Sequence record: SRR22947727_2715
Direction: 5' to 3' (one strand)
Length of the DNA stretch: 40,556 nucleotides
Shown: positions 1 to 1,608 of the stretch, piece by piece
Position numbering within the stretch: position 1 is the stretch's first letter
How the letters are laid out: every line of letters begins with the position of its first letter
Program-made: the position numbers and the translations under genes
The notes under the pieces: generated by a model
What the model saw: the letters and a program-made list of their open reading frames with translations, nothing else
Databases searched by the model: none
What the model was told of the DNA's origin: nothing

Positions 1-380
1 CGGACGCCATTCTCATTGGAAATAAATGCGTAGAGAACAAGCTCGTTGCTATTGGAATCCCCGGAAAAAGCCACGCGATTTTGATTCGCAACGAATTGAT
101 TCGGGCAGAAGGCATGCCTCCGATTGTTGCCGTTCTTGAAGGCTCTTCGTCGACCTTAATCGAGAATAAAATCACAGGAGGCGGCATTAGCGGTGTCATG
201 ATTTTCGGCAGCGCAACTTTGATTGAGAACACCATTGAAGGAAAGCCAGCCGGCAAAAGTAGCGGCATCTTTATTCAAAAAACGGGCAGGGCGACGACCT
301 TTGGAAATGTGTTTGAAGACATAGGGAACATCGTTCGCAACGCCGGAGAGTGGAATGATTTGGATTCAAAAAAGAAGTAG
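1..380 (+). CDS. C-terminal part of a right-handed parallel beta-helix repeat protein (5'-truncated by window edge)
   Basis: Frame is open from position 3 to TAG at 378-380; repeating 'LIENxIxGxxxxGIxI' units are typical of beta-helix (pectin-lyase-like/NosD-like) repeats. Confidence 0.65.
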   Translation, partial: DAILIGNKCVENKLVAIGIPGKSHAILIRNELIRAEGMPPIVAVLEGSSSTLIENKITGGGISGVMIFGSATLIENTIEGKPAGKSSGIFIQKTGRATTFGNVFEDIGNIVRNAGEWNDLDSKKK

Positions 381-382
381 CG

Positions 383-536
383 TCGGAGCGTCGGGACTCG
401 AATTTGCTGCTTCGCAGCTCTGCGATTTCGCTTCGCATTTTCCCAACCGCTTGCGCGGCGAGGCAGTCGCAACCGGCGACTTATCTGGCACTTACCGAAT
501 ATAAATCGGCTGCTCTACCAATTGAGCTGCGCTCCG
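383..536 (-). ncRNA. Elongated tRNA-like RNA (154 nt) with UAU (Ile) anticodon and expanded variable/T region
   Basis: Minus strand: acceptor CGGAGCG/CGCTCCG (7 perfect bp), D arm GCTC-AATTGGTA-GAGC, anticodon arm GCCGA-TTTATAT-TCGGT, T-loop TTCGAGT then CCCGA; about 80 extra nt forming four hairpins; C at position 8; no encoded CCA. Confidence 0.75.
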
Positions 537-548
537 CGTTGAAATTGA

Positions 549-622
549 TACCCACGGCAGGACTTGCACCTGCAACCTCCGCGCTCTGGACTCGACGCCT
601 CTACTGATTGGGCTACATGGGC
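549..622 (-). tRNA. Non-canonical/pseudo tRNA (74 nt), identity undetermined
   Basis: Minus strand: GCCCATG/CGTGGGT acceptor, TA, GCC...GGC D arm, imperfect anticodon stem TCGAG/CGCGG with loop TCCAGAG, T arm GCAGG-TGCAAGT-CCTGC; T-loop has TGC instead of TTC; no CCA. Confidence 0.7.
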
Positions 623-630
623 ATTGAATG

Positions 631-701
631 AAAAACATCGGACGTCGCGGTCGGCGTGCCGCCGATTCTCCCGTCGCTGGCGAGCCAGCTTTGATGTTTT
701 T
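631..701. other. Three-way-junction structured element (terminator, leader or small RNA)
   Basis: Closing helix AAAAACATC (631-639)/GATGTTTTT (693-701) encloses hairpins TCGGCG-TGC-CGCCGA and GCTGG-CGAG-CCAGC; ends in a U-tract on either strand. Confidence 0.55.
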
Positions 702-723
702 TGAAATGTAGATATGTATTAGT

Positions 724-1608
724 TTACCGATTTGTGTTAACCGCCGATTTCACTAGGGCCGGATCATTTTTCACAGCGTCAAAAAAAGATGGGAAATTTG
801 GAGTCCATCCAAGTGATTTCAGCTTCTTGATGGAAATTTTCTTGTTCGTCCAAGCGCGTTTCCGACTCATGTTCGGTTCTGCTTCGTCTGGTATGGGCTT
901 TTCAAATATTGCGGCCAAGCCTTCGTAACACTCGCGTTGAGTCATGGGTGTATCGTCAGCAATGTTATAAATGTGCCCTCTGGTTTGCGTCCGCGCATCA
1001 AGCGAGATGAGATGTTTGATCGCAGAAATAATATCGTCTAGATGAATCTGGTTCAAATAACGACTGATCTCTCCCGTTTCGATGGAGGCGGTTCCTTCCA
1101 GAAATTTCTTCAGATGGACGGAGCGAGCAGGTCCGTAAATGCCGGCTAGGCGCAGGACGGTTCCCTGATAGCGGATTAGATTTTCCTCGGCTTCACGCAA
1201 GAGATGCCCGGTCTCGCGGTCAGGTTGGGCGGGAGATTCCTCATCGACTTCTGATCCATCGGTTTGTCCGTAAACGCTCGTGCTGCTGGTCAGAAAAATA
1301 TGGGAGTCTGGAAAAGCGTTGTGGAGATTGTCGATCCCGTCACGAAAGACACTTCGATACGCTTCGGCGCCGCCGCGATTCGAGCTGGCGCAATGAATGA
1401 CAATTTCGGGTTCAAAGTCGATTGTTTGAACTGCGGCGGTGTTTCCGAGATCACATGAAATTAGCGGATATCCATTTGGATTTGCATTTGCATCACCGAC
1501 ACTTTTCGTGATCGCAAAAACGGTGTGCCCGTCAGCGACGAGCTCTTGGGCAAGGGGCTCACCTAAGTAGCCGTGGCCGGCGATGAGGATTTTGGAACAA
1601 TGTTTCAC
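724..1608 (-). CDS. NAD-dependent epimerase/dehydratase (atypical SDR, YeeZ-like)
   Basis: N-terminal ILIAGHGYLG Rossmann motif, SSTSVYG, LRLAGIYGP, IHLDDI. Confidence 0.85.
   Translation of the reverse strand: MKHCSKILIAGHGYLGEPLAQELVADGHTVFAITKSVGDANANPNGYPLISCDLGNTAAVQTIDFEPEIVIHCASSNRGGAEAYRSVFRDGIDNLHNAFPDSHIFLTSSTSVYGQTDGSEVDEESPAQPDRETGHLLREAEENLIRYQGTVLRLAGIYGPARSVHLKKFLEGTASIETGEISRYLNQIHLDDIISAIKHLISLDARTQTRGHIYNIADDTPMTQRECYEGLAAIFEKPIPDEAEPNMSRKRAWTNKKISIKKLKSLGWTPNFPSFFDAVKNDPALVKSAVNTNR

Follow-up and report, generated by a model that had tools for sequence, protein, structure and literature searches.

The stretch of DNA analyzed here, hereafter the window, comprises 40,556 nt of sequence record SRR22947727_2715. 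On its minus strand it carries a 154-nt element derived from a tRNA(UAU) gene, which is accompanied by a second tRNA gene of array type, by a hairpin-rich leader, and by an epimerase gene upstream; a convergent beta-helix gene on the plus strand ends at position 380. The features of the two tRNA genes and their leader are as follows:

383..536, minus strand: whole tRNA(UAU)-derived gene in its long form, 154 nt, as read, folded, and aligned to the 91-nt ortholog L001:1535-1625
530..536, minus strand: 5' strand of the acceptor stem, CGGAGCG, in perfect pairing with 384-390
512..527, minus strand: D arm, GCTC-AATTGGTA-GAGC, preceded by C8 (529)
494..510, minus strand: anticodon arm, GCCGA-TTTATAT-TCGGT, with TAT at 503-501; the same in genomes G002 and G082
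476..491, minus strand: conserved variable arm, GTGCC-AGATA-AGT(C)GC, the consensus hairpin of six short forms
471..475, minus strand: linker CGGTT from the variable arm to the T stem, aligned with GGGTT or AGGTT of the short forms
466..470, minus strand: GCGAC, which by alignment takes the place of the former T-stem 5' strand and is now the 3' side of hairpin 481-465
403..465, minus strand: inserted segment, by alignment a net gain of 63 nt relative to the same-genus gene of G002
463-442, minus strand: extended hairpin inside the insert with a GCAA loop, containing CCGC-GCAA-GCGG (458-447)
437-421, minus strand: hairpin inside the insert, specific to the window
418-406, minus strand: hairpin GCTGC-GAA-GCAGC inside the insert, adjoining the T loop
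396..402, minus strand: T-loop heptamer TTCGAGT, the same as in G002
391..395, minus strand: 3' strand of the T stem, CCCGA (CCCGC in G002)
383..390, minus strand: 3' strand of the acceptor stem, CGCTCCG (390-384), and discriminator A383; no CCA is encoded
549..622, minus strand: neighboring array tRNA with a class-I body and the Leu-type anticodon CAG (Rfam, 38.9 bits; no ARAGORN call)
627..706, minus strand: hairpin-rich leader upstream of both tRNA genes, an array-type repeat

A preliminary description of this DNA had drawn the element with an acceptor stem, a D arm, an anticodon arm reading UAU, a T loop, and four hairpins (481-465, 458-447, 437-421, and 418-406). All of these were located on the minus strand where they had been placed, and the four hairpins contain no mismatches. 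The anticodon arm and the T loop lie 91 nt apart. Folding of the 154-nt strand yielded -62.9 kcal/mol as compared to -50.35 +/- 3.52 kcal/mol for 200 shuffled sequences (z = -3.57), only one of which equaled it. When compared to the canonical tRNA (Rfam RF00005), the element has the 7-bp acceptor stem and discriminator base, a D arm with G18 and G19, a 5-bp anticodon stem, a 7-nt anticodon loop, and U33. The 5-bp T stem that should close a 7-nt loop is missing, since the heptamer is present and its 5' strand (GCGAC, 466-470) makes only two of five pairs with CCCGA, and position 8 is a C (529) rather than a U.

ARAGORN and Rfam, which the preliminary description had named as tools for identifying the element, did not recognize it as a tRNA gene. 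ARAGORN called no tRNA in the whole window, and the Rfam tRNA model matched the element only in part (467-531) at 25.9 bits, under the 29-bit threshold and with no end-to-end alignment; the single Rfam tRNA above threshold in the window was the neighbor at 549-622. Weak matches to other Rfam models were rejected, namely YrlA (RF02553; 22.4 bits against a threshold of 69 bits, with the match covering the T arm of the neighbor and the D arm of the element), twister-sister (20.5 bits), and group II fragments (10.6-12.8 bits, E 4.9-5.3), the latter two far under threshold. We attribute these weak matches to ordinary tRNA features, which produce them.

A search of 61 related genomes revealed that this region of the window matches dense tRNA gene arrays. 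The corresponding loci of relatives contain 5-15 ARAGORN tRNAs per ~3 kb, and 133 Rfam tRNA matches were found over 14 such loci. One of these arrays, in the same-genus genome G002, encodes a 91-nt tRNA-Ile(tat) (L001:1535-1625) that was called by both ARAGORN and Rfam (63.3 bits) and that is 93% identical to the window over 468-540, with a single difference in the last 20 nt. The two sequences align base for base up to GGTTGCG and the alignment resumes at TTCGAGT, with 63 additional nt in the window between these points. An epimerase homolog lies upstream of the G002 gene, as the epimerase gene lies upstream of the window element. Judging from these alignments, the window element is the local copy of an 89-91-nt tRNA(UAU) with a conserved variable arm. 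The short ortholog in G002 thus proves one option offered in the preliminary description, that of a tRNA gene with a small intervening segment, over a random tRNA look-alike; chance resemblance is excluded because the G002 ortholog is a bona fide tRNA gene.

The same alignment revises the anatomy of the element. It had been proposed that a single insertion spans 403-472 with GCCGG (477-473) as the old strand of the T stem. The single insertion is nearly right, with a net insert of 63 nt at 403-465; the old strand is GCGAC, and GCCGG proves to be the last two bases of the variable arm together with the linker. Nor is the whole of the 91-nt spacer extra sequence, since ~18 nt of it correspond to the variable arm and linker that are conserved in an already existing tRNA(UAU) family. 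An alternative T stem between TTGGG (446-442) and CCCGA, also proposed earlier, costs ~2-3 kcal/mol. TTGGG otherwise belongs to the extended hairpin, which the forced stem disrupts, and this stem has no counterpart in G082. Restoration of the T stem by this pairing was rejected, as it is less stable than the hairpin fold and absent in G082.

The 5' part of this tRNA(UAU) was detected in seven of 134 genomes of the family. A search of the order with a degenerate pattern identified the parent tRNA(UAU) in five of 401 genomes, all within family f1 (5 of 119), and returned no further long form. The parent tRNA is encoded in long accessory arrays of Verrucomicrobiales relatives and also on a single phage contig (L057, IMGVR_UViG_3300017917_002560), a 138-kb viral contig that carries 38 ARAGORN tRNAs within an 11.6-kb stretch. 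The phage copy (3665-3756, minus strand) is a short variable-arm tRNA(UAU) and provides a link between the bacterial arrays and the tRNA sets of phages; it nearly matches the array copies in its variable region, even though all of its stems differ. The six short forms adopt a normal 7/5 cloverleaf with a small variable-arm hairpin that has an AGATA or GGATA loop. Among them, compensatory changes were observed in 14 of 26 pairs, including four of the five T-stem pairs, which clearly points to selection on the T stem of the short forms. The window element has the UAU anticodon and the variable arm that characterize the family (G-Y-G-C-Y / R-G-A-U-A / A-G-Y-bulge-G-C) and departs from its complete ~90-nt cloverleaf in being 154 nt long and without the T stem. 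In the 5' body, the window, G002, and G082 are 93-94% identical to each other. By eye, neighboring Leu-type tRNA genes appear more divergent between these arrays than does the tRNA(UAU) 5' body. The literature searched contained no description of a variable-arm tRNA-Ile(UAU) of phages or arrays; the tables of array tRNAs that accompany PMC8421152 and PMC4758250 may include comparable genes.

Other unusual genes accompany tRNA(UAU) in these arrays. A conserved, odd tRNA-like gene (GGGGGCTTAGTTTAAAAG...) lies just downstream of tRNA(UAU) in three genomes (L001:1658-1728, and also in L046 and L047), of which the copy at L001:1658-1728 received 41.6 bits from the Rfam tRNA model and no ARAGORN call. 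The arrays also encode a tRNA-Thr(UGU) of 69-72 nt with a shortened 5' part and CAGATAAG at the place of the D arm; its L050 copy lies ~100 nt downstream of tRNA(UAU), and ARAGORN calls a tRNA-Thr (tgt) with the anticodon at position 30 in L006, L009, L010, and L042. CAGATAAG is the same motif as the loop of the tRNA(UAU) variable arm, which hints at a common recognition element.

Nine distinct tRNA(UAU) sequences were identified, of which three are long: that of the window (identical in L041 and L043), that of G082 (L046, 156 nt, with the same sequence in L042), and that of G140 (L049). The end of the L049 contig cuts the G140 insert after 27 nt, and the complete long forms are thus those of the window and G082. 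In each of the three, the additional nucleotides begin exactly at the position of the T-stem 5' strand. Homologs that retain an insert at the same site, for which the preliminary description had called, are therefore present in two other genera (G082 and G140). Two insert-pattern scans of viral contigs for further long forms returned five loci, all of which were rejected as unrelated and lacking an adjacent tRNA(UAU), and a scan of metagenomes yielded nothing beyond a contig with the sequence of the window.

The insert occurs once in the window. Elsewhere in genomes G001-G003 it has no match better than E 0.047, and in G140, G082, G142, G068, and G148 none better than E 0.22; comparison with the spacers of all arrays considered revealed no similarity. 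These results argue against a genome-wide repeat that recently disrupted an ordinary tRNA gene, an outcome that the preliminary description had named as fatal to its proposal, and a miniature repeat or genome-wide insertion element was rejected on the absence of multiple copies per genome. The inserts of the three genera are related to one another. The window and G140 inserts share 21 of 25 aligned bases, with a local score of 28 as compared to 12.4 +/- 2.6 for shuffled sequences (0 of 2000 reached it). For the window and G082, the local score is 27 against 14.7 +/- 3.0 (7 of 2000 shuffles) and the global score 38 against 16.2 +/- 6.2 (0 of 2000). A hairpin at the T loop recurs as GCTGC-GAA-GCAGC in the window and GATGC-GAA-GCATC in G082, and a hairpin with a GNRA-type loop recurs as CCGC-GCAA-GCGG in the window and CCGC-GATA-GCGG in G140, with CCTGTT/AACAGG at the same place in G082. 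Hairpins 481-465 and 437-421 are found only in the window. Novel among these results is the insert itself: homologous, structured, and single-copy, it occupies the T-stem position of a tRNA gene in three genera.

Compensatory changes among homologs, also anticipated by the preliminary description, were recovered in part. Both sides changed in four of the 25 pairs of the three long forms, namely acceptor pair 6:67 (C-G in the window, U-A in the G082 long form), two pairs of the anticodon stem (30:40 and 31:39), and pair two of hairpin 418-406 with its GAA loop; for the GNRA hairpin, column-wise covariation is not claimed. Across the three long forms 96.8% of cells are paired, with two cells counted as unpaired because the MAFFT register places the G082 GNRA hairpin one base off. 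Nine of 500 shuffles matched this count of paired cells and both-side changes. Relative to G002, hairpin 481-465 has changed a C-G pair to U-A and a G-G mismatch to G-C, and these paired changes, which create the hairpin, look like selection for structure. Among the inserts, that of G140 most resembles the window insert, and yet the G140 body nearly coincides with the G142 short form and is distinct from that of the window at the anticodon stem, loop, and linker. The histories of insert and body thus disagree, and therefore either the insert moved between alleles or the alleles recombined. The long form of G082 received 45.2 bits as a full tRNA, with 77 nt placed in the T loop, and has a perfect alternative T stem (GCAGG/CCTGC) that is formed in the minimum-energy fold. 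Directly upstream of this gene in L046 are two tandem 14-nt units, each an acceptor 5' strand with a short complement that forms a mini-hairpin; they look like leftovers of deleted tRNA genes.

One way to read these data is that the long form works as a gene and that its insert is a type of intervening sequence not described in bacteria, either excised with rejoining of the ends or cut such that the acceptor stem keeps the halves together, with a usable tRNA(UAU) as the product. We regard this as distinctly improbable. The one insertion site shared by homologous inserts in three genera, the both-side changes, the extent of pairing, and the alternative T stem of G082 all favor an intervening sequence; however, excision that restored a T stem would have to cut the window and G082 RNAs at different points, and neither complete long form has a bulge-helix-bulge at its insert borders or shares a splice-site structure with the other. 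Likewise, a full-length RtcB RNA ligase is encoded in G002 and G082, but in G001 RtcB is represented only by a 34-bit fragment, and the splicing-endonuclease family PF01974 was detected in none of four genomes by a search that, as a control, matched four archaea. No Rfam ribozyme or intron family matched the long forms at threshold when hits up to E 10 were inspected. Finally, the bodies of the G082 and G140 genes are free of private substitutions and so in keeping with working genes, but the window copy carries C8.

That substitution is one of several signs of damage in the window copy. Position 8 is T in all seven other array copies compared. A second private change, C58U (C to T), converts a G-C pair of the variable arm to G-U. 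At sites of the 61-nt 5' body that are invariant in the seven other copies, there are thus two private substitutions in the window (U8C and C58U), one in G148, and none in G082, G140, G002, G068, or G142. The array itself has shrunk to two genes, both of which are degenerate. When compared to its G002 ortholog, the neighboring tRNA (549-622) has an A30-G40 mismatch in the anticodon stem, and its encoded CCA has become TCA; its anticodon is CAG in the window and GAG in L043. This neighbor also has a short variable loop, C33, and a UGCAAGU T loop. A long variable arm is normal for bacterial tRNA-Leu, and the arrays of relatives contain several tRNAs of 73-77 nt with Leu anticodons (gag, cag, taa, tag, and caa). 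Similarity to the leader at 627-706 was found at three positions of the G002:C9 array (76-84% identity) and at one of G001:C131 (77%), the latter ~1.2 kb to the left of the window; the leader may act as a promoter of the array or in its processing.

The genome of the window itself is outside the comparison set, and in the nearest genome compared, G001, 38 tRNA matches are dispersed and form no array. G001 lacks window positions 31-1472, as one of its contigs stops at window base 30 and the next begins at 1473; because this contig break spans 31-1472, the tRNA remnant and the epimerase gene fall in an assembly gap of G001. TilS was detected in all four genomes tested, including G001, and decoding of AUA, a rare isoleucine codon, is therefore independent of the window tRNA(UAU) gene. 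Matching DNA shows the organism to be common in seawater metagenomes. The 154-nt sequence is unchanged in a second record (L043) and in a DNA contig that comes from a seawater metagenome of another study; the 10 differences in 3174 nt between the window and L043 (99.685% identity), none of them in the element, are too few for this identity to be informative.

Loss of the original T stem is common to both complete long forms, which retain two (window) or, on an alignment reading, three (G082) of its five pairs and keep the other helices, including all seven acceptor pairs. This pattern raises the alternative that the long form is a functional, non-decoding tRNA-like RNA in which the insert replaces the T arm as a structural module. 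The important part would then be its conserved 5' two-thirds, made up of the acceptor 5' strand, the D arm, the UAU anticodon arm, and the variable arm, which could serve as ligand or decoy of an enzyme that recognizes this tRNA, for instance an anticodon nuclease or modification enzyme. Arrays have been discussed as counter-defense or as stress back-ups in the portions of PMC12803027 and PMC8421152 that we draw on, and the conservation of the 5' body among the window, G002, and G082 and of the variable arm in a phage tRNA with otherwise different stems is in line with such a role. Even so, we consider this alternative unlikely. The two private changes of the window copy fall at otherwise invariant positions of the very body that would be under constraint, of the hairpins just 418-406 and the one with the GNRA-type loop are shared among inserts, no partner protein or conserved neighboring gene emerged, and no RNA contig from the three RNA runs considered here (X17-X19) covers the insert.

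The RNA data come closer to the plus-strand gene. Metatranscriptome contigs from runs X17 and X18, both of one study, cover 200-393 and 200-384 at a depth of 2.5-3.3; as neither these contigs nor those of X19 reach across the insert, they neither support nor exclude the 154-nt form. In X19, an oligo-dT RNA library from sediment, a 228-nt contig contains the short form of a relative, which corresponds to window 468-536 with four differences in 69 nt and may derive from DNA carry-over. The ends of the X17 and X18 contigs at 384-393, at the edge of the element, could suggest that its hairpins instead serve a neighbor, as terminator or 3'-end stabilizer of the convergent beta-helix gene that these contigs traverse, or that the likeness to a tRNA is fortuitous. 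One terminator-like site was indeed flagged on the plus strand at 412-425. However, scans for promoters and terminators returned nothing above chance, with two terminator-like sites found as compared to 1.0 +/- 1.1 in shuffled sequences, and the contigs end before the hairpins and are shallow. Same-site inserts also occur in genomes where the downstream neighbor is another tRNA-like gene, and a fortuitous likeness is incompatible with the orthology to the G002 gene. We consider it very improbable that the hairpins have such a role or that the likeness is accidental.

With orthology to a variable-arm tRNA, the position and single-copy status of the insert, the homology of the inserts, and the local damage all observed, our preferred explanation, to which we give an even chance, is that the window copy is a non-decoding relic of an insert-bearing tRNA lineage in a collapsed array. 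The source would be the variable-arm tRNA-Ile(UAU) that belongs to the long accessory arrays of tRNA genes known as L-arrays, which are mobile. The 5' strand of the T stem would have been replaced in an ancestor by a structured segment of 68-70 nt, for a net gain of ~63 nt, and two other genera carry diverged versions of this segment at that site. In the genome represented by the window, the array would then have collapsed to two genes, and the copy that was left, without a T stem, would have lost U8 and acquired a weakened variable arm. Such a relic may still be transcribed, and its maturation and use as a tRNA would no longer be possible. RNase P, the CCA-adding enzyme, and EF-Tu all need the acceptor/T-arm helix to recognize a tRNA, and the tRNA core requires U8; because of these requirements, loss of function of the window copy is the most likely outcome. 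There is precedent for such decay, in that three of the 26 genes of one studied L-array behave as pseudogenes, and insertions, duplications, and deletions are described as frequent in arrays, in the portion of PMC8421152 that we draw on. The preliminary description had favored selection over decay, a view that the window copy does not bear out given its C8, weakened variable arm, missing T stem, collapsed array, and degenerate neighbor.

Other features count against reading the window copy as a relic. Its acceptor stem, D arm, anticodon arm, and T-loop heptamer are intact, and its hairpins are free of mismatches. As far as comparison of sequences can indicate, homologous inserts at the same site in G082 and G140, in bodies with no private changes, would be hard to reconcile with genes that are long dead. 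The tRNA score and alternative T stem of the G082 form, the undamaged bodies of the G082 and G140 genes, and the paired changes in hairpin 481-465 likewise fit poorly with an old dead gene. A broader proposal, which we put forward tentatively and hold to be possible rather than probable, is that the three long forms together represent a new bacterial tRNA intervening sequence. This would be a segment of 68-70 nt, built of hairpins, that sits at the junction of the T stem and T loop of an accessory tRNA(UAU), is passed between alleles whose tRNA bodies differ, and is either removed by some cut-and-join route or converts its host into a stable, non-decoding tRNA-like RNA.

To our knowledge, descriptions of introns in bacterial tRNA genes are limited to group I introns that splice themselves out of the anticodon loop, and a short, structured insert found at a single T-arm site in three genera would add something new to these. 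If correct, it would represent either a novel class of intervening sequence or a novel means of converting a tRNA into a tRNA-like RNA, and it bears on the purpose and decay of long accessory tRNA arrays in marine Verrucomicrobiales. If instead the window copy is a relic, it would provide a well-documented case of the breakdown of an array tRNA gene, as well as a warning that tidy hairpins are by themselves no proof of function.

Several known systems resemble the element in part. Archaeal tRNA introns, which the EndA endonuclease cuts at flanking bulge-helix-bulge motifs, occur at non-canonical positions that include the T loop, and they share with the window insert a short intervening sequence in the T arm of a tRNA gene. 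An archaeal-type intron was rejected, since no bulge-helix-bulge is common to the insert borders of the window and L046 and PF01974 was found in none of four genomes. Group I introns are typically at least 200 nt long and, in tRNA genes, are located in the anticodon loop. As in the window, they form an intervening sequence within a bacterial tRNA gene; the window insert differs in its length of ~63-70 nt, in its position in the T arm, and in matching no intron model. A group I intron with a P1-P9 core in the anticodon loop was rejected on the T-arm site, the ~63-nt length, and the lack of any Rfam intron family at threshold. Group I introns in bacterial tRNA genes are reported to self-splice (PMC3984707).

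The allo-tRNA(UAU) group, as outlined in the section of PMC7609411 that summarizes Mukai et al. (2017), resembles the element in its UAU anticodon, destabilized stems, possible junctions with extra stems, and association with mobile DNA, and its members were inactive in translation in E. coli. Allo-tRNAs, as that part of PMC7609411 describes them, have an 8/4 or 9/3 acceptor/T domain (12 bp) and are of serine type, in contrast to the 7-bp acceptor stem, A73, and isoleucine-type body of the window element. Membership in this group was rejected on the 7-bp acceptor stem, A73, and the 7/5 fold of the short relatives. The nematode nev-tRNA-Ile(UAU) also combines a UAU anticodon with an extra arm in the variable region; it is eukaryotic, is charged with leucine in vitro, and has no T-arm insert, as far as the excerpts of PMC3333845 and PMC4300185 describe it, and the resemblance does not imply homology to the window element.

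The setting of the element is closest to that of L-arrays, which are reported for Verrucomicrobia among other phyla and likewise consist of accessory tRNA genes, some of them pseudogenes, that are subject to frequent insertion, duplication, and deletion (PMC8421152, in the portion drawn on here). The locus differs from them in being a two-gene remnant, and a structured insert in three genera is not mentioned in that portion of PMC8421152. Among individual tRNAs, the closest is the variable-arm tRNA-Ile(UAU) of phages and arrays, an 89-91-nt tRNA with a 7/5 cloverleaf. The window element differs from it in its length of 154 nt, its net gain of 63 nt, its C8, and its missing T stem, and shares with it the UAU anticodon, a conserved variable-region hairpin that contains GAU (AGATA), and a place in an array.
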